The notes: generated by a model from the sequence alone, not told the origin. A DNA stretch of 64,000 nucleotides from Anaerolineae bacterium (GCA_037440905.1 JBBITE010000011.1:10037-74036), one strand, 5' to 3'. Shown: positions 42,972 to 51,646, counted from the first letter of the stretch. Numbers and translations: made by a program.

Positions 42972-44294
42972 ATGCAAAACACCTCAAGACCCAAAATCGG
43001 CATCATCGGCGGCGGCATCATGGGCATCAGCCTGGGCTACTTCCTCTCCAAACAGGGAGCCGCTGTCACCATCTACGAAGCCTCCCCCGTCCTCGGCGGG
43101 CTGGCGGGACCCATCACCCTGGAAGACGGCACACAGGTAGACCGCTTCTACCACGCCATCCTCTCCAGCGACCGTCATCTGAGCGACCTGTGCAAAGAAT
43201 TGGGCATTCACGATCAGTTGCGCTTCAAGGAGACCAAAACTGGTTTCTATTACAAGGGCGCGATCTACCCAATGAACAACATCATCGAGTTTCTCAAATT
43301 CCCGCCCCTCGGCTGGATTGACCGCTTCCGCCTCGGGCTGACGGTGCTTGCCGCACAATTCATCAAAGACTGGCGCACGCTCGAATCGGTCAGCGTGCAG
43401 GATTGGTTGTTGAAATGGAGCGGCGGGAACACCTTCCAAAACATCTGGCGCCCGATGCTCAAAGCCAAATTCGACGGCGGCTTCGATGATGTCCCTGCCA
43501 CGTGGATCTGGTCGCGCCTGGTACGCATGAAGTCCACGCGCGAGGGCGCCAACCAAAAAGAAATGGCGGGTCACCTCATCGGCGGCTACATTACCCTCAT
43601 CCAGGCAATGACCGAAAAAATCAAAGCCAGCGGCGGGCAGGTGCTGCTGCAAACCCCGGTCAAAGAGATTCTCATCGAAAACGGCAAAACGAGCGGCATC
43701 CGCCTGGCGAACGGCGAAACGGTGAACTTCGACAAGGTGGTTTGCACCATGCAGGCGCCGGTCTTTCAGCGTTTGCTCCCCAACGCCGACCCTGCCTACC
43801 AGGCGCTTCTCACCCAAACCGAATACCTGGGCATCATCGCCCCGCTGCTCGTCCTCACCCGCCCTCTTACCGGCAACTGGACCATCAATATCACCGATGA
43901 CCGCTTCCCTTTCACCGGCATTATCGAAACCACCGCGTACATTGACCCGCAATATGTCGGCGGCTATCACCTCGTCTATCTGCCCAAATACACCGCCCCC
44001 GGCAGCGACTGGCAAAAGAAAAGCGACGACGAGATCAGGCACATTTGGCTCGAAAACCTGCAAGCCATGTTCCCCAACTTCGATCCATCCACCATCAAAT
44101 ATTTCCTCATCCACCGTGAGCGTTACGTCGAGCCGCTGCATGGGCTGAACAAAACGGACTCCATGCCAGAGGTCAAAACGCCTGTCGAAAACCTGTATCT
44201 CGCTACCACCGCTCAAATCTACCCGGCGCTTACGAACGGCGAGTCGGTCAGCCGCCATGCGCGCGAAGCGGCGGGAATCATCTTGGGCGCATAA
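42972..44294 (+). CDS. FAD-dependent oxidoreductase (amine oxidase/protoporphyrinogen-oxidase-like fold)
   Basis: IGIIGGGIMG, YEASPVLGG, DRFYH, QIYP. Confidence 0.85.
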   Translation: MQNTSRPKIGIIGGGIMGISLGYFLSKQGAAVTIYEASPVLGGLAGPITLEDGTQVDRFYHAILSSDRHLSDLCKELGIHDQLRFKETKTGFYYKGAIYPMNNIIEFLKFPPLGWIDRFRLGLTVLAAQFIKDWRTLESVSVQDWLLKWSGGNTFQNIWRPMLKAKFDGGFDDVPATWIWSRLVRMKSTREGANQKEMAGHLIGGYITLIQAMTEKIKASGGQVLLQTPVKEILIENGKTSGIRLANGETVNFDKVVCTMQAPVFQRLLPNADPAYQALLTQTEYLGIIAPLLVLTRPLTGNWTINITDDRFPFTGIIETTAYIDPQYVGGYHLVYLPKYTAPGSDWQKKSDDEIRHIWLENLQAMFPNFDPSTIKYFLIHRERYVEPLHGLNKTDSMPEVKTPVENLYLATTAQIYPALTNGESVSRHAREAAGIILGA

Positions 44295-44344
44295 TACCGT
44301 CATGGATTATGGACGCCCTCCAGTGTCCGCTTTGGAGAAAAGCA

Positions 44345-44923
44345 ATGGAAAATAAAAACTATATTATCGTCGTTTCGGGGCTGCCGCGCTCCGGCACATC
44401 CATGATGATGAAAATGCTCGAAGCCGGCGGCTTGCCCATCCTGACCGACAACCTGCGCACGCCCGATGCCAACAACCCCAACGGCTATTATGAATTTGAG
44501 CGCGTCAAACAACTGCCGCAGGGTGATTACGGCTGGCTGCCAACGGCGGGCGGAAAGGTCGTCAAGATTGTGACCGGGCTGATCATGTACCTGCCGCCGG
44601 GGTATCACTACAAGGTCATCTTTATGCAGAGGGCAATGAAAGAAGTGTTATCATCCCAGAAGAAAATGCTCGGTCGCCTGGGCAGGGAGGATGACAAGGT
44701 CGAAGATGAAAAGATGCGCAAGATTTACCAAGAACACCTCAAACAGGTGAATGCCTGGCTGGCAAAACAGCCCAACTTCGAGGTGCTTTATGTCAATTAC
44801 AATACCATGCTCAGCGATCCGCTCGATTCGCTCGAAAAGGTCAACGAGTTTTTAGGCGGCGGCATGGATGTAAACCTCATGGCGGGGGTGATCAACACAG
44901 AGTTGTACCGGGAGAGAAGGTAA
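44345..44923 (+). CDS. sulfotransferase-family P-loop protein
   Basis: SGLPRSGTSMMMKML 5'-PSB loop, NPNGYYE, IFMQR, YNTML. Confidence 0.8.
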   Translation: MENKNYIIVVSGLPRSGTSMMMKMLEAGGLPILTDNLRTPDANNPNGYYEFERVKQLPQGDYGWLPTAGGKVVKIVTGLIMYLPPGYHYKVIFMQRAMKEVLSSQKKMLGRLGREDDKVEDEKMRKIYQEHLKQVNAWLAKQPNFEVLYVNYNTMLSDPLDSLEKVNEFLGGGMDVNLMAGVINTELYRERR

Positions 44924-44931
44924 GGGGGGAA

Positions 44932-44971
44932 AGTAGAGAGTAGAAAGTAGAAAGTAGAAAAAGTAGAAAGT
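44932..44971 (+). repeat. heptamer tandem repeat (AGTAGAA)~5
   Basis: AGTAGAG AGTAGAA AGTAGAA AGTAGAA AA AGTAGAA AGT. Confidence 0.85.
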
Positions 44972-45003
44972 GACAACCAGAGAAAAAGGAAAGGAGTAGG
45001 AAC

Positions 45004-45234
45004 ATGCTGTTTGTTTTATTCAACCTGGTCGGACCGCTGCGCCCGCCCGAATACCTGGGACCTGAAACCCTCATGCCGCTGGCTTCCATTCTGGCGGCAA
45101 TTGCCGGCTTTTTCCTCTTGTTTTGGCGGCTCATCGTGAAGTTCTTCAAAACCTTATATCGCAAGGTTCGCGGACTGCCGGATGAAGTCCCGCCGGAGGT
45201 AGAAGACCCCGCGGAAGAAGAGCCGGAGAAATAA
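45004..45234 (+). CDS. small single-pass membrane protein
   Basis: 76 aa; RBS before ATG; EYLGP, TM (LASILAAIAGFFLLFW), basic stretch, acidic Pro/Glu tail. Confidence 0.75.
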   Translation: MLFVLFNLVGPLRPPEYLGPETLMPLASILAAIAGFFLLFWRLIVKFFKTLYRKVRGLPDEVPPEVEDPAEEEPEK

Positions 45235-45394
45235 GCCGGTCTAACAGTCAGGCGCATCGCCGGCGTTTTGCCACGCTGCTTGCGCCGAAACCAACCTCTC
45301 TCGAGATGCTGATTACAAAATGACTGTAGATTCGCCTTTTTATGATTTATACGAAAGATGGCGCTTAACAAGGATTCTAATCCCTCACGAGAAA

Positions 45395-45470
45395 GCGTAT
45401 TGGGCGTTCTCTAACGCCGAATTTGCGCAAGAGAGCGCAAAGTACGCAGGGTTTTCGTGATCCACGAAAA
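45395..45470. repeat. REP-like copy 3 plus CGCAAAG-type periodic units and an 8-bp hairpin
   Basis: GGCGTT-CTCT-AACGCC (45403-45418); GCGCAAGAGAGCGCAAAGTACGCAGG; TTTTCGTG-ATC-CACGAAAA (45452-45470). Confidence 0.55.
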
Positions 45471-45488
45471 TTGGTGAAAGTACAGAAA

Positions 45489-47330
45489 ATGAACAAAGTG
45501 ATTGTCATTGGGCTAGATGGCTTCGAGCCGAAGATTGCCGAGGCGATGATGGCGCGCGGCGAACTGCCCAACCTGCAAAAAGTACGCGAGCAGGGCGGTT
45601 ACGCGCGCCTCGGCACCACCTATTCCGCGCAGACGCCGGTTGCCTGGTCCACTTATTCCACCGGCACCAACCCCGGCGGGCACGGCATCTTCGATTTTCT
45701 CAGCCGCGACCCCAAAACCTACCTGCCCGTCATGGCGCTCAGCCGTTACGAGCAAAAAAACGCGTTTGTGCTGCCCAAAGTGGTGAACATGCGGCGCGGC
45801 ACGCCCTTTTGGGACCTGCTCTCCGCCAGAGACGTGCCTTCTACCATCCTGCGCGTACCGTGTGCCTACCCGCCGGATCAGGTAAAGGGACGCATGCTCT
45901 CCGGCGTCGGCGTGCCTGACTTGCGCGGCGGCTTTGGCACGCCCACCTTTTATTCCACCCGCAAAGACCTGCATGCCGACCAGAGCGAGAAGGTGATTGC
46001 CGTCCGCGTGGAAGGGGAGCGGGTGGCGACGCAGGTCATCGGTCCGCGTGACCCGAAGACCAAGTCCGATCACAAGTTCGATATCCAAATCCAAATCCTG
46101 CGCGCCGAAAATAAAATCATCATCTCTTCCCAGGGGCAGCCCGATAAATTGGAAGTGCAATTGGGCAAGTGGAGCAAGTGGCTCAAGGTGCGCTTCAAGG
46201 TGGGGATGATGCAAAGCGTGGCGGGCATTGTGCGCTTCAACCTGCGGCAGATCGAACCGGAGTTCGAACTGTATGCCTCGCCGGTCAACTTTGAGACCGA
46301 AGAGCCGCTCTTTCCCATTAGCCACCCAAAGGAATATGCCCATGAACTGGCGATGAAGATCGGGCGTTATTACACGGCCGGCATGGCGGAAGATCACGAC
46401 GGCTTGAACCTGAACCGCTTTGACGAGGCGGCATATCTCGATCAATGCCACATTGTGATGCGCGAACGCCGCCGCATGATGGAATATGAATTGGGCAGGT
46501 TCGAGCGCGGTTATTTCTATTGCCTGTACGATACGCCCGACCGCCTGGCGCACATGTTCTGGCGCTTCCGTGAAGCCGACCATCCCTCCAACCGCCCTCA
46601 CGGCTACAACGTCGAGTTTGCCAACGCCATCGAAGAACATTACCGCGAATGCGATGCCATCGTGGGCGAGGCGCTAAAGGCGGTGGATGACGAAACGCTC
46701 TTCATCGTCCTCAGCGATCACGGCATGAATTCGTTCCGCCGCGGTTTGAACCTGAACACCTGGCTGTACGAAAACGGTTTCCTCGCGCTCAAGCCCGGCG
46801 TGCAGCCCGGCGAAAGCGGCGACTTTTTCCAAAACGTGGATTGGGATAACACCAAAGCCTTTGCCCTCGGCTTGGGCTGCATCTTCCTCAACCTCAAGGG
46901 ACGCGAAGCCAACGGCATTCTGAACGCAGAAGCAGCCGAACAAACCCGCGAGCAAATCGTGCGCGGGCTGAGCGGGCTGGTGGATGCCGAACGCGGCGCG
47001 GTGGCAGTGCGCAGCGTGGTGCGCCGCGAGCAAGTCTATAGCGGACCCTACCTCGAGGAAGCGCCCGACCTGCTCGTCAATTTCTCTGAAGGCTATCGCG
47101 TCTCGTGGGATACGCCCCTCGGCGGCGTGCCGCAGGGCTTGTTTGCCGATAATCACAAACGCTGGGGCGGTGACCACGTTATTGACCCGGCGCTCGTGCC
47201 GGGCGTGTTGTTCATGAACCGAAAGTTCCGCGCCGATTCGCCAAACCTGGTTGACCTTGCACCGACAATTTTGAACGTCTTCGGCGTGCCGAAAAATGCC
47301 GAAATGGAAGGGAGCGATTTGCTGTCATGA
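45489..47330 (+). CDS. alkaline-phosphatase-superfamily (NPP/phosphodiesterase-type) protein, no signal peptide
   Basis: IGLDG, AQTPVAWSTYSTGTNPGGHGIFDF (Thr nucleophile), DRLAH, LSDHG, GDH, DLAPT. Confidence 0.88.
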   Translation: MNKVIVIGLDGFEPKIAEAMMARGELPNLQKVREQGGYARLGTTYSAQTPVAWSTYSTGTNPGGHGIFDFLSRDPKTYLPVMALSRYEQKNAFVLPKVVNMRRGTPFWDLLSARDVPSTILRVPCAYPPDQVKGRMLSGVGVPDLRGGFGTPTFYSTRKDLHADQSEKVIAVRVEGERVATQVIGPRDPKTKSDHKFDIQIQILRAENKIIISSQGQPDKLEVQLGKWSKWLKVRFKVGMMQSVAGIVRFNLRQIEPEFELYASPVNFETEEPLFPISHPKEYAHELAMKIGRYYTAGMAEDHDGLNLNRFDEAAYLDQCHIVMRERRRMMEYELGRFERGYFYCLYDTPDRLAHMFWRFREADHPSNRPHGYNVEFANAIEEHYRECDAIVGEALKAVDDETLFIVLSDHGMNSFRRGLNLNTWLYENGFLALKPGVQPGESGDFFQNVDWDNTKAFALGLGCIFLNLKGREANGILNAEAAEQTREQIVRGLSGLVDAERGAVAVRSVVRREQVYSGPYLEEAPDLLVNFSEGYRVSWDTPLGGVPQGLFADNHKRWGGDHVIDPALVPGVLFMNRKFRADSPNLVDLAPTILNVFGVPKNAEMEGSDLLS

Positions 47331-47944
47331 ATGTTTTGGTCTTGAATTTTCCCGGCGCCGAACGCGCCGCCCTCTTCACCGATGAACGCCTTGAAAACCT
47401 GCGCCGCCTGATGGATATGGGCTGCTTCGGCGCCTTGAATGCCGCCGGCGAGTGGAACGTGCTTGCCCGGCAGGAGAACCACACACTGACGCTCATGGAA
47501 TACTTCCAACAGGCGGATAAACTCTGCGTGGAGACGACTGACCCCGTGACCCTGCGTGAAAAACTCTCAGTGGGCGATTGGGACTACCTGCAATACACCG
47601 CCGCTTCTTACCCCGCCGAAGCCTGGTCTGCCGACGACTACCGGCGCCTCGACCGTGACCTGGGTGAAGTGCTCCAGGAACTGAGCGACGATACCCTCAT
47701 CACCATCCTCGGGCGGGATTGCTTTGTGCTGGTCTCTGCCGTCAACCCCCTCAGCGGCGAATACAGCGGCGGCTCCGCCTGCGATATTGCCCCCACCCTG
47801 GTGCAACTGGCGGGCTTTCCGCTTCCCTCCGTGACCGAAGGAAAATCGTGGGTGGAAGGCATGGAGTTGAACAACGCTGCGGGCCTCACCGCCGATGAGC
47901 AGCAAATCCTGCGCGACCGCCTGAGCGGACTGGGATACATCTAG
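47327..47944 (+). CDS. miniature, apparently inactive alkaline-phosphatase-fold protein
   Basis: Keeps NLRRLM..G..G, DIAPTL..AG..P..EGKS and the terminal RLSGLGYI, but lacks DG, nucleophile and SDHG motifs; ATG overlaps previous stop. Confidence 0.7.
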   Translation: MNVLVLNFPGAERAALFTDERLENLRRLMDMGCFGALNAAGEWNVLARQENHTLTLMEYFQQADKLCVETTDPVTLREKLSVGDWDYLQYTAASYPAEAWSADDYRRLDRDLGEVLQELSDDTLITILGRDCFVLVSAVNPLSGEYSGGSACDIAPTLVQLAGFPLPSVTEGKSWVEGMELNNAAGLTADEQQILRDRLSGLGYI

Positions 47945-47952
47945 AATAGAAA

Positions 47953-49800
47953 ATGAAACACTTCGACAAAAAGATTACAGCGGAAATTTTCCTCCAAGCC
48001 GCCTGGTTTGCCCTGTTGACCGGGCTGGTGGAAGGCATGCTGCTCTACATTTTCAGAACCTTCGAACTGCTGAAGGGACAAATCACCTACCTCGGCTCCG
48101 GCTGGCAGGTGCTGTGGATTGCGCCGCTCTTCGACCTGCTGCTCTTTCTGGTCGTGGGAGCGGGCCTGGCGCTCGCCGCGTACTTCCTCCCGCCGCCCTG
48201 GGCGAAACGGCTGGCGCTGTTTGCCTTTGCCTTCCTGATGACCTTCGCCTGGCTGGGGACGTATCTCTCCGGGCGGCTCTCGCCGGTGGCCACGCTTATC
48301 CTTTCAGCAGGGATTGGCTATCAGGTATCGCTGAGTCTCTTCGAGCGTGAGAAACGATTCGTTCCTTTTGTCCGCAAAACCGTCCGATGGCTGGGTGTCG
48401 TTGTCCTGGGACTGCTGGTGGTAATCCAAATCGGCTATTGGCTCAGCGAGCAGATTGCCGTGCGCAGCCTGCCGCCGGCCAAAGCCTCCACCCCCAACGT
48501 TTTGTGGATTGTCATAGACACCCTGCGCGCCGACCACATGTCGCTGCACGGCTACGAGCGCCAGACCGACCCCTACCTCGCCAGCCTCGCCGAACAAAGC
48601 GTCGTCTTTGATAACGCCTACGCCACCTCCTCCTGGACTCTCACCTCTCACGCTTCGCTCTTCACCGGGCGCTGGCCTTACGAACATAAAGCCGACGGCG
48701 GACGCCACCTCGACGATACCTACCCCACCATTGCCGAAGCCCTTGCAGCGCGCGGTTATCGCACCGGCGCCTTCAACGGCAACTTCGAAACCGTCACCAG
48801 CCGCTGGGGCTTTGCGCGCGGTTTCCACCACTTCGAAGATTATTACCAAACCCTGCCCCAACTGGCGGTCAGTTCCTTCTACGGCAGATTCCTGGAATAC
48901 TATGTGCTGCACAAAGTCTTTGGCATGCAATTTTCCATTGACCGCCGCTGGGCGCCCAGCGTCAACCAATCGGCGCTGGATTGGATCGCGCAGGATGCCA
49001 CCAAACCTTTCTTCGTCTTCATCAACTATTACGACGTTCACGCTCCTTACATCTCGCCCGAACGCGCGCGCTTCTCGCAATACGAAAACCCCGGCGGCCT
49101 CGTCAACACCGATTGGACAACCGCCGACATCTACAACCCCAAAACCCCCGAACAAATCCAGGGCGAAATAGATGCCTACGACGGCGGCATCTACTACACC
49201 GACCAGCAAATCAAACTCCTCATGGAAGAAATGCAGCGGCGCGGCTGGCTCGAAAACACCATTGTGGTGATCACCTCCGATCACGGGGAACTCTTCGGCG
49301 AGCATGGCTTATGGGAACATCACAACTCGCTCTACCGCCCGGTCATCTACGTGCCGCTTATCCTCTGGTATCCGCAAGCGGTGCCTCAGAACCTGCGCAT
49401 CGAGACACCCGTCTCTAACGCCGCCCTGCCCGCTACCATGCTGGACCTGCTTGGCGAACCCGCGCAAGACCTCTTCCCCGGCCCTTCCCTCGCGGAACTC
49501 TGGCGCGATCCCTCCTCTGCCGCTCGCTTTCCAGACCCGATTGCGGAGATGGCCGAATCGCCCTGGGTCAACCCCAATCATCTCTCCATCAAAGGCGATA
49601 TGGTCACCGTCCTTTCCGAAGACTGGCAGTACATCGAGCATGAGTACAACGGCGTCGAACTCTACAACCTGCGCAATGACCCCGACCAATTGAACAACCT
49701 CGCCGCCGAACAGCCCTCGGTGCTCAACCAACTCAAACAGTATTACCTCGATGCCATCGCCAAACTCGGCCTCACCTGGCCCTATGACATCGAAAAATGA
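47953..49800 (+). CDS. membrane-anchored sulfatase-fold hydrolase/transferase 1
   Basis: About 5 N-terminal TMs; IDTLRADH, SSWTLTSHASLFTG, YYDVHAPY, YDGGI..D, TSDHGE. Confidence 0.88.
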   Translation: MKHFDKKITAEIFLQAAWFALLTGLVEGMLLYIFRTFELLKGQITYLGSGWQVLWIAPLFDLLLFLVVGAGLALAAYFLPPPWAKRLALFAFAFLMTFAWLGTYLSGRLSPVATLILSAGIGYQVSLSLFEREKRFVPFVRKTVRWLGVVVLGLLVVIQIGYWLSEQIAVRSLPPAKASTPNVLWIVIDTLRADHMSLHGYERQTDPYLASLAEQSVVFDNAYATSSWTLTSHASLFTGRWPYEHKADGGRHLDDTYPTIAEALAARGYRTGAFNGNFETVTSRWGFARGFHHFEDYYQTLPQLAVSSFYGRFLEYYVLHKVFGMQFSIDRRWAPSVNQSALDWIAQDATKPFFVFINYYDVHAPYISPERARFSQYENPGGLVNTDWTTADIYNPKTPEQIQGEIDAYDGGIYYTDQQIKLLMEEMQRRGWLENTIVVITSDHGELFGEHGLWEHHNSLYRPVIYVPLILWYPQAVPQNLRIETPVSNAALPATMLDLLGEPAQDLFPGPSLAELWRDPSSAARFPDPIAEMAESPWVNPNHLSIKGDMVTVLSEDWQYIEHEYNGVELYNLRNDPDQLNNLAAEQPSVLNQLKQYYLDAIAKLGLTWPYDIEK

Positions 49801-49807
49801 GCCGCCC

Positions 49808-51646
49808 ATGACCGCAAAGCAAACCCCTCGTTTCTTTGCCGCCGGCGAGACCCTTGCGCTCTCTGCCGCCATTGGTCTCCTCACCGGTTTGGTGGAAGGA
49901 CTGCTGCTCTTTGGTCTGGCGCGCGCTGCCTGGCTTACCTGGCGCCTGCAAAACCGCGCCTACTGGTATGAAACCCTGTGGATTGCCCCGCTGGTAGACC
50001 TCGTCCTATTTACGCTGGCGGGAGCGGTCTTTGCGGTGGGGGGGCGTCTCTTGCCGCGCCTGCCGCTGCGCAGGGTTTTCTGGTTTGCCTTTGTCTTCCT
50101 TACTGTCTTCGACTGGTTCTTCATCCTGCTGTTTGGCAAAATCTCTCTCTTTGCCATCCTGCTCCTCGCCACAGGGACGGCGTATCAAGTCTTCAGTTTC
50201 ATTGCCAGGCGCGAAGCGGCGGCTGCCTCACGCTTACGGCGCTGGCTTCCCTGGCTGGCGGGCGCGGTGGCGCTGCTTTTCATCGCCATTCAGGGCGGGG
50301 GCTGGCTCACCGAAAAAATCCAAGCCGCCCGTCTGCCGGCTGCCGCTCCGGCTGCGCCCAATGTCGTGGTCATCATCGTGGATACCCTGCGCGCCGACCA
50401 TCTCTCCTCCTACGGCTACGAACGCCAGACCAGCCCCTTCATAGACAGCCTCGCCGCGCAGGGCGTCCGTTTCGAAACCGCGATTGCTCCTTCCTCCTGG
50501 ACTCAACCCTCCCACGCCTCCATGTTGACGGGACGCTACACCTACGAAACCCAGGCTGAGACCCAGCCCTTGGATGATACCTATCCCACCATCGCTGAGG
50601 TCATGCAAGCCAACGGCTACCGCACCGGCGCTTTCTCGGCGAATACGCTCTTCTTTACCCGCCGCCAGGGGCATGGACGCGGCTTTTTGCACTTTGAAGA
50701 CAACTACCAGTCGCTGCCCGATGCGTTCCTCAACTCCTCCCTCTACGGATTCCTCTTCGACTTCTACGGCTTGCGCCGGGCGCTGGGCTATGAGGGAGTC
50801 CCCACGCGCCGCCTCGCCTCCGACATCAACCGCGCCGCCCTGAATTGGATTGACGGCGGGAGCCAGCCCTTCTTCGTCTTTATGAACTACTTCGACGTGC
50901 ACGATCCCTACACCCCGCCGCAGCCGTATCGCAGCAAGTTTGCCTCCGTGCCAAATCCCGGCGGCCTGATCAACGGCTTCGTCGAACGCTATTCTCCCTC
51001 CCTCACGCCGGAACAACTGCAATCTGAAATTGACGCCTACGATGGCTCGATTGCCTACGTGGACGATCAAATCAAAGACTTGTTCGGCGAACTGGAAAAA
51101 CGCGGCTTGCTCGAAAACACCATCGTCATCATCGCTTCGGATCACGGCGAATCGCTGGGTGAACACGGACTGCTTCAACACAGCGCCTCGCTCTACCTGC
51201 CGGAAATCCATGTACCACTCATCCTCTGGGCGCCAGGACGGGTGCCCGCCGGCAGGAGCATCGAAACCCCCGTCAGCCTCACCTCTCTGCCGTCCACCAT
51301 CCTGGCGCTGATTGGAGCCACCCCGCAGCCCTTCCCGGCGCAGCCTCTCACGCTGCTCCTCAACGCCGAAACCCCGCCCGCCGATTGGCGCGACCCCATC
51401 GCGGAACTGGCAAAGATGGAAGGCGCGGCAGAGATCAACCCATCCACGCATGGCGCCATGAAATCGGTCGTCGGCGCCGAAATGCAGTATATTACGCACG
51501 AAACCTTTGGCGAGGAACTTTACAACTGGCGGCAGGATCCACAGGAAACCAACAACCTCGTCCACGACCCCGCCGCCAAAGACGCGTTGAACGGCTTTCG
51601 CCTGTACCTGAAAACCATGCTCGGTCAACTCTTTCAACTGCCATGA
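49808..51646 (+). CDS. membrane-anchored sulfatase-fold hydrolase/transferase 2 (tandem paralog)
   Basis: VDTLRADH, SSWTQPSHASMLTG, YFDVHDPY, ASDHGE. Confidence 0.88.
   Translation: MTAKQTPRFFAAGETLALSAAIGLLTGLVEGLLLFGLARAAWLTWRLQNRAYWYETLWIAPLVDLVLFTLAGAVFAVGGRLLPRLPLRRVFWFAFVFLTVFDWFFILLFGKISLFAILLLATGTAYQVFSFIARREAAAASRLRRWLPWLAGAVALLFIAIQGGGWLTEKIQAARLPAAAPAAPNVVVIIVDTLRADHLSSYGYERQTSPFIDSLAAQGVRFETAIAPSSWTQPSHASMLTGRYTYETQAETQPLDDTYPTIAEVMQANGYRTGAFSANTLFFTRRQGHGRGFLHFEDNYQSLPDAFLNSSLYGFLFDFYGLRRALGYEGVPTRRLASDINRAALNWIDGGSQPFFVFMNYFDVHDPYTPPQPYRSKFASVPNPGGLINGFVERYSPSLTPEQLQSEIDAYDGSIAYVDDQIKDLFGELEKRGLLENTIVIIASDHGESLGEHGLLQHSASLYLPEIHVPLILWAPGRVPAGRSIETPVSLTSLPSTILALIGATPQPFPAQPLTLLLNAETPPADWRDPIAELAKMEGAAEINPSTHGAMKSVVGAEMQYITHETFGEELYNWRQDPQETNNLVHDPAAKDALNGFRLYLKTMLGQLFQLP

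Follow-up and report, generated by a model that had tools for sequence, protein, structure and literature searches.

An uncharacterised alkaline phosphatase-fold gene cassette with a portable C-terminal tail and a possible role in the sulfation of surface glycans

How bacteria sulfate their glycans is poorly understood, and the reaction is usually credited to P-loop sulfotransferases that depend on 3'-phosphoadenosine 5'-phosphosulfate (PAPS). A 64,000-nucleotide stretch of DNA from an Anaerolineae bacterium (GCA_037440905.1 JBBITE010000011.1:10037-74036; the whole stretch is called the window here, and positions are counted from its first letter) raises a question on this point. Here the gene for a PAPS-type sulfotransferase (A) is followed by genes for a membrane microprotein (B), an enzyme of the alkaline phosphatase (AP) superfamily (C), a small pseudoenzyme of AP fold (D) and two membrane-anchored sulfatase-fold proteins (E and F). 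An earlier sequence-only reading had taken A to D as a four-gene module for glycan sulfation. Do these genes belong together, and what do they do? Our preferred answer, which we hold with about even confidence, is that 44345-51646 is the Anaerolineales version of a widespread, uncharacterised AP-fold envelope-modification cassette using activated sulfate, as PAPS or adenosine 5'-phosphosulfate (APS), and most likely sulfating a surface glycan. The genes concerned, with the paralog C2 described below, are the following.

44345-44923, + strand: A, PAPS-type sulfotransferase, 192 amino acids (Pfam PF13469 and PF00685)
45004-45234, + strand: B, membrane microprotein, 76 amino acids, one transmembrane (TM) helix
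45489-47330, + strand: C, AP-superfamily enzyme of the nucleotide pyrophosphatase/phosphodiesterase (NPP)/PhnA type, 613 amino acids, predicted cytoplasmic (PF01663)
47327-47944, + strand: D, pseudoenzyme, 205 amino acids, ATGA overlap with C (C2 alignment, AP-fold model)
47891-47941, + strand: docking-type C-terminal tail of D, DEQQILRDRLSGLGYI, after a low-confidence linker
47953-49800, + strand: E, membrane-anchored Thr-type sulfatase-fold protein, W-T-L-T-S-H (PF00884)
49751-51646, + strand: F, paralog of E, W-T-Q-P-S-H (PF00884)

To determine which genes form the conserved unit, 80 genomic loci were fetched and compared with the proteins of the window. Close relatives of C number in the thousands and are named just "alkaline phosphatase family protein". 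The loci, cited below by their L numbers, span about ten phyla and represent Anaerolineales, other Chloroflexota, Gemmatimonadota, Planctomycetota, Acidobacteriota, KSB1, Verrucomicrobiota, Rokubacteria, Methylomirabilis and Nitrospiraceae; all carriers except one (Singulisphaera sp.) are metagenome-assembled genomes (MAGs), and open reading frames (ORFs) in the loci were called mechanically. A B homolog lies directly 5' of C in 71 of the 80 loci, and a membrane sulfatase-fold gene is found no more than about 7 kb away in 61. A full second PF01663 paralog of about 488 residues, which we call C2, comes right after C in half of the loci (40/80), mostly via an ATGA overlap. A reduced C2/D form is present in 21 loci, a few of these forms being contig-end truncations. 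Sixty-eight loci have an ORF that bears the tail. A is present in 17 loci, every one from Anaerolineales. The conserved unit is thus B, C, C2 (or D) and the Thr-type membrane sulfatase-fold proteins E/F, and A is an Anaerolineales companion only.

The four features that mark the cassette, namely a TM microprotein with Y-x-G-P-[ED], an NPP (613 residues here), a tail-bearing partner and a Thr-type sulfatase-fold gene, all occur in the window and are also present in most of the 80 loci. Elsewhere the B-C-C2-sulfatase string is sometimes bare and more often sits within clusters of glycosyltransferase (GT2, GT4, GT-C), flippase and epimerase genes, as judged from gene calls and Pfam labels. A gene for a flavin adenine dinucleotide (FAD) oxidoreductase, WecB, a GT-C gene and a gene for a protein with a twin-arginine translocation (Tat) signal accompany A only in loci syntenic with the window. 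The sequence-only reading had identified A as a sulfotransferase, B as a 76-residue membrane protein and C as a signal-less NPP with a Thr nucleophile, all correctly by Pfam, alignment and sequence, and its grouping of these genes with the two downstream membrane sulfatase-fold proteins agrees with the synteny of the core across phyla. Its A-B-C-D module does not survive as an evolutionary unit. The expected common neighbourhood was found for B, C, D and E/F, which are syntenic in 18 Anaerolineales loci with a core recurring in many phyla far above chance, but not for A.

C matches PF01663 at 112 bits (cut-off 23). Its N-terminus, MNKVIVIGLDG, is the first beta strand, so that no signal peptide is predicted, and the secreted or ecto location of classical NPPs is not expected for C. 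In an alignment of 25 sequences the residues D10, T49, D348/D351, H355, D410, H411 and H563 are invariant; the predicted two-metal site and the Thr49 nucleophile are intact. A beta-rich insertion spans approximately residues 153-265. Homologs across phyla are 50-60% identical, save in two of the most distant loci (43-45%). A sequence search of the PDB with C returned nothing and a profile search gave only weak N-terminal NPP/PhnA matches, while the structural model (predicted local distance difference test score, pLDDT, 70.7) had ENPP1, PhnA and autotaxin as its top Foldseek matches. Against the NCBIfam PhnA model C scores 16.5, compared with a cut-off of 407. By these scores, C is a PF01663 member outside every characterised subfamily.

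B is matched by no Pfam or NCBIfam model. It consists of a single TM helix and the motif Y-x-G-P-[ED]-x3-P-x2-S-x6-G-x2-L-x-F-W-R. A profile search retrieved 1375 cluster representatives, of which the best 150 are all 47-117 residues long; this yield and the uniform small size argue for a genuine, widespread microprotein family. The positive-inside rule leads us to infer an N-out/C-in topology, and a possibly fused B-C ORF in L045 fits with it. That ORF (L045:6716-8833, from an Isosphaeraceae MAG) is a single frame of 706 residues comprising the B TM helix, a linker of about 60 residues and C, and it is either a true fusion, which would support contact between B and C, or the artefact of an indel in long reads.

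The origin of D became clear only through C2, since direct BLASTP of C against D, tried as a route to it, gave two weak patches only. C2 has a complete catalytic set (GLDC, PPITVPAW, DRxxHGFW, SDHGA and CNH) and is approximately 70% identical across phyla. D matches it in four blocks: the first 39 residues, a short WDY block, a YxxLDxExG block and the last 75 or so residues up to the C-terminus. Two large deletions relative to C2 strip D of GLDC, PPITVPAW, DRxxHGFW, SDHG and CNH; no Pfam or NCBIfam model matches D, and the NPP catalytic motifs of PF01663 are not found in it. Its model (pLDDT 82.5, predicted template modelling score 0.80) has a low-confidence linker between a compact alpha/beta core and a terminal helix. 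The Foldseek matches at E <= 0.001 all belong to the AP superfamily (sulfatases, Xac NPP, ENPP6/7), and those to YejM/PbgA and phosphopentomutase fall just short of this threshold. By alignment, D is C2 cut down to its fold core and the invariant C-terminal tail. The sequence-only reading was therefore right to call D a dead mini-AP coupled to its neighbour (ATGA overlap, AP-fold model, catalytic motifs gone); its treatment of D as a family of its own does not hold, D being derived by decay from a paralog that is kept, catalytically intact, in most lineages.

Ratios of nonsynonymous to synonymous substitution (dN/dS) among the Anaerolineales orthologs are 0.05-0.25 for D and 0.05-0.12 for C. 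The low values for D point to a pseudoenzyme maintained under purifying selection and not to a decaying gene. Independent reduced forms of C2 were found in L018 (a Chloroflexia MAG, 267 residues) and L048 (a Planctomycetaceae MAG, 187 residues). We considered that an A-like sulfotransferase might always compensate for lost C2 catalysis and rejected this, as no sulfotransferase lies within 20 kb of the reduced forms in L018 and L048. In L008:6986-9454, from a long-read Chloroflexia MAG, C and D form one frame of 823 residues. Since neighbouring genes of that MAG are frameshifted, misassembly at the ATGA overlap is the probable cause.

What D has retained besides its fold core is the tail. D and the reduced forms all end in RLSGLGY-[IV], with RLSGLGY invariant, and C2 ends in R-L-x-G-L-G-Y-[IL], the same motif with small variation. 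A search for this ending in all ORFs of the loci found it on nearly every C2 and D; in the window genome D is the only ORF that has it. In loci that lack C2 (L028, L036/38, L072), C itself bears the tail and is longer by 45-65 residues. The tail is also present on the stand-alone APS kinase of the Gemmatimonadaceae loci. In alignment the canonical domain of this kinase ends where the kinase domain of the window genome ends, and 27 residues follow, made up of a linker, an acidic stretch and RRRLA[GS]LGY[IL]. Where Gemmatimonadaceae loci have both APS-kinase genes and no C2, the kinase is the sole tail bearer. This distribution suggests that the cassette members are assembled through a shared docking peptide. 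A CysK-binding peptide of the GxGI type was considered and appears unlikely, as many copies have extra residues after the Ile/Leu. A lineage in which an enzyme appears to have turned into a pure adaptor amounts to a natural experiment, and it marks the tail, not catalysis, as the indispensable part. The tail and its bearers provide concrete, testable interaction targets.

The same observations bear on one alternative, that A, B-C-D and E/F merely share a glycan locus and act separately on different steps, the tail being a generic element for oligomerisation or stability. A is indeed not conserved with the others outside Anaerolineales, and promoter and terminator scans were uninformative on this point, giving chance-level results only. 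We nevertheless judge this explanation very unlikely: the order of the genes and their ATGA couplings are closely kept from phylum to phylum, the tail moves among three unrelated scaffolds (C2/D, C and APS kinase) within the same loci, and the catalytically dead D is kept under purifying selection.

The next question is whether the cassette is tied to sulfate. A scores above the cut-offs of both PF13469 (41.5 bits, cut-off 27) and PF00685 (34.4 bits, cut-off 22). Its 5'-phosphosulfate-binding (5'-PSB) loop, GLPRSGTS, occupies residues 12-19 and the R...S stretch of the 3'-phosphate-binding (3'-PB) motif, QRAMKEVLSS, lies near residues 96-105; read directly from the sequence, both fall within the Pfam-aligned stretches. 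Orthologs are 78-97% identical, and the source-named ones are all from Chloroflexi/Anaerolineales. By its motifs, A is an ordinary small canonical PAPS-type sulfotransferase, one that accompanies the cassette in this lineage only. The window contains no gene for APS kinase, ATP sulfurylase or CysD, in agreement with the earlier remark that cysC and cysDN are missing there. The sole PAPS synthase of the genome is a Sat-CysC fusion on another contig (C23:25808-27538), and the genome is without CysD.

In Gemmatimonadaceae a sulfate-supply operon divergently adjoins B-C. It encodes a Na/sulfate symporter, a PHP-domain protein that is a candidate 3'-phosphoadenosine 5'-phosphate (pAp) phosphatase, a bifunctional APS-kinase/ATP-sulfurylase and, often, an extra tailed kinase. 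Two APS-kinase genes, one fused to ATP sulfurylase and the other stand-alone and tailed, were found in L019, L024, L056, L066, L069, L071 and L073. A PAPS-synthesis gene is present in 16 of the 80 loci, and in L020 and L056 canonical sulfotransferases lie inside the cassette or beside it. An APS kinase was found in every one of the 27 cassette genomes tested. Four of these 27 show no PF13469 or PF00685 match; one of the four has a PAPS synthase inside the fetched locus and another apparently has one just upstream. A search for fusions of ATP sulfurylase with an NPP, using a concatenated Sat and C2 query, returned C2 orthologs only, and long APS-kinase ORFs in cassette genomes, examined as possible fusions, were ordinary CysN-CysC beside CysD. 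Taken together, the adjacent PAPS operons, the D/C2 tail on APS kinases and the sulfotransferases in or near several loci connect the cassette with activated sulfate and support the sulfation link that had been proposed.

Such a link would also be expected if C, with C2, did sulfonucleotide housekeeping, clearing pAp, surplus APS/PAPS or pyrophosphate where sulfation takes place and so easing product inhibition of sulfotransferases like A. The sequence-only reading had offered such recycling of pAp as one option. C has a nucleotide-handling fold of the NPP type with an intact hydrolytic site, it is linked to PAPS supply, A is adjacent, and no CysQ-like gene was noticed in the window. We regard this role as distinctly improbable, however, since the Gemmatimonadaceae loci already have the candidate pAp phosphatase, the four cassette genomes above show no canonical sulfotransferase to serve, and C2 catalysis is dispensable in three lineages. 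Nor would a hydrolase with such a task require a membrane microprotein, a second paralog and sulfatase-fold partners in the membrane.

These partners, E and F, match PF00884 at 164 and 196 bits, with the domain lying behind a multi-TM N-terminus. Both are below every curated NCBIfam cut-off. In place of the formylglycine motif C/S-x-P-x-R, E has T-L-T-S-H and F has T-Q-P-S-H. Among 70 sequences (68 relatives from the loci plus E and F) the Cys/Ser position is held by Thr, with Ser in three, and His stands for Arg in all but two. The sulfatase-fold proteins of the loci belong to a single family that has multi-TM anchors and the motifs W-T-x-P-S-H and D-T-[LV]-R-A-D-H, and the positive-inside rule predicts an extracytoplasmic catalytic domain for E and F. 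They score 41-53 bits against EptA (cut-offs 561-660) and 22.5 against LtaS (cut-off 970). By motif and score, E and F are neither formylglycine sulfatases nor members of the LtaS or EptA families. The first ATG of F lies 50 nt inside the end of E; Met codons at 49784 and 49808 are alternative starts, and the N-terminus of F is uncertain.

The properties of E and F open a further alternative, a phospho-group transfer system unrelated to sulfate. C and C2 would then process a nucleotide- or polyprenyl-linked phosphodiester, and E/F, like LtaS, EptA and OpgB, would add phosphoglycerol, phosphoethanolamine or a similar group to an exported glycan that A and the PAPS genes decorate independently. 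The best fold matches of C are phosphodiesterases and PhnA; E and F combine a Thr nucleophile and a multi-TM anchor with weak matches to EptA, LtaS and YejM; GT-C, UbiA, GT2 and flippase neighbours fit lipid-linked envelope chemistry, and most loci have no sulfate gene nearby. On the other hand, the cassette's own tail has been grafted onto APS kinases, and the kinase is the sole tail bearer in one clade. The PAPS operon stays adjacent in both diverged Gemmatimonadaceae locus groups, and genes for donors such as cytidine diphosphate (CDP)-glycerol or CDP-ethanolamine do not recur. On balance we consider phospho-group transfer unlikely.

In the sulfation reading that we prefer, the surrounding GT and GT-C genes would make a surface glycan, and the cassette would place sulfate esters on it. 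B would tether C at the cytoplasmic face of the membrane, and the tail would dock its bearers (D here, C2 or APS kinase elsewhere) on a common receptor, which may be C, B, E/F or a sulfurylase, bringing the supply of sulfonucleotide close to its use. Transfer of sulfate in the cytoplasm would fall to A and/or C, E/F would act on the glycan outside the membrane, and D would serve as an adaptor only. Sulfuryl transfer by an AP fold is credible in view of Agl30 (VNG1056C) and Agl31 (VNG1057C), AP-superfamily N-glycan sulfotransferases of Halobacterium salinarum that are genetically required for sulfation and whose transfer to Haloferax volcanii is sufficient for it (PMC11980604).

Several points weigh against this reading. 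APS kinase is found not only in the cassette genomes but also in 11 of 14 control genomes. Most loci (Planctomycetota, Chloroflexia, Acidobacteriota and others) have no sulfate gene within 7-10 kb, some (L093, L094) are bare cassettes, and because PAPS-operon adjacency is limited to one phylum it may reflect few independent events. NPP chemistry normally attacks phosphorus and not sulfur. The catalytic domains of E and F are predicted to lie outside, where no PAPS exists, and both proteins resemble the phospho-group transferases LtaS and EptA.

A more far-reaching form of the sulfation reading treats B-C-C2/D-E/F as a self-contained AP-fold sulfation machine. C, held by B, would receive the sulfonucleotide from a tail-docked APS kinase or PAPS synthase, take the sulfuryl group on Thr49, and either sulfate a lipid-linked glycan directly or charge a membrane-bound sulfate carrier. 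On the outer face of the membrane, where there is no PAPS, E/F would finish the transfer. A covalent intermediate on the AP enzyme and transfer of the group outside by the membrane sulfatase-fold proteins had also been put forward in the sequence-only reading. In Anaerolineales the canonical sulfotransferase A would have taken over C2 catalysis, leaving the adaptor D. We regard this as possible, if doubtful.

The remaining features of the window concern the immediate surroundings of these genes. The + strand from 42.9 to 53.7 kb is one tight co-directional gene string in which the Tat-signal protein gene comes after F. The features not given above are as follows.

42972-44294, + strand: FAD oxidoreductase (Amino_oxidase; NCBIfam PRK07233, 467 bits, cut-off 252)
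44924-45003, + strand: A-B spacer with about five tandem AGTAGAA(A) units (direct sequence reading)
45323-45488, + strand: dispersed folding repeat in the B-C gap, about 165 nt, resembling miniature inverted-repeat transposable elements or repetitive extragenic palindromes (at least 20 genome copies)

The tandem units form most of the A-B spacer and sit immediately 5' of the ribosome-binding region of B. Of the dispersed repeat the genome has at least 20 copies, which lie in both orientations and are 81-96% identical; it folds strongly (z = -4.2) and abuts the start codon of C. In close relatives the B-C spacer is only 48-90 nt and does not contain it. An Rfam search of 44200-48100 gave no match. 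The metagenomes that hold this stretch (hot spring, subsurface and sediment) are DNA only.

Other genes were also seen beside the cassette. An FAD oxidoreductase (PRK07233, with a faint GLF match once) adjoins it in unrelated lineages (L085:437-1894, L086:17622-19106 and L095:4817-6250), and the Amino_oxidase-type enzyme may be a further accessory member. An AMP-binding gene, resembling acyl-coenzyme A (CoA) synthetases, lies after C or nearby in L022, L025-L027, L035, L036 and L068 (for example L027:8736-10460); these loci are mostly from Gemmatimonadota, two of them place the gene between C and C2, and an acyl-CoA dehydrogenase is sometimes present. Radical S-adenosylmethionine (SAM) genes were noted too, B12-binding ones in L072 and L083 and one of the SPASM type in L085.

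The cassette occurs in Chloroflexota, Gemmatimonadota, Planctomycetota, Acidobacteriota, KSB1, Verrucomicrobiota and other phyla. Among its parts are a microprotein family outside the Pfam and NCBIfam models searched and a portable tail common to the cassette and APS kinases. Literature searches on COG3379 and on AP-superfamily PAPS enzymes gave nothing relevant, and no paper was found on B, C or C2. The sequence-only reading had stated that no system of this composition is characterised, which still stands for B, C and C2; papers on glycan sulfotransferases of sulfatase fold, however, have appeared since 2025 (PMC11980604).

Compared with known systems, C has in common with the NPP/ENPP phosphodiesterases and PhnA (PF01663; PDB 2gsn, 6weu, 3szy) the fold, the two-metal site and the Thr nucleophile, while D has their fold core only. 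Unlike them, C is predicted to be cytoplasmic, has the beta-rich insertion of about 110 residues, is partnered by a paralog and a microprotein, and is found in glycan and sulfate contexts. A has the 5'-PSB and 3'-PB motifs of canonical PAPS sulfotransferases of the NodH, Stf0 and SULT type, but is very small and has no NCBIfam assignment. E and F resemble LtaS, EptA (MCR) and OpgB in their build: a polytopic anchor forms the N-terminal part, and the sulfatase-fold domain behind it has a Thr nucleophile. The periplasmic domain of YejM/PbgA, a catalytically degenerate AP-fold regulator, offers a parallel for D as an AP-fold domain with a putative non-catalytic role; YejM is periplasmic, membrane-anchored and of about 340 residues, whereas the much shorter D is predicted to be cytoplasmic and ends in the docking-type tail. 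Agl30 and Agl31, one membrane-associated and one soluble, are likewise encoded in a glycan locus, their donor and mechanism being undefined there (PMC11980604). They are annotated as sulfatase/arylsulfatase-type and not PF01663, and their description includes no microprotein, paralog pair or docking tail. If the cassette does handle activated sulfate, it might explain the sulfation of polymers outside the membrane, and it would extend the single archaeal precedent of Agl30/Agl31 to a broad and mechanistically distinct system.

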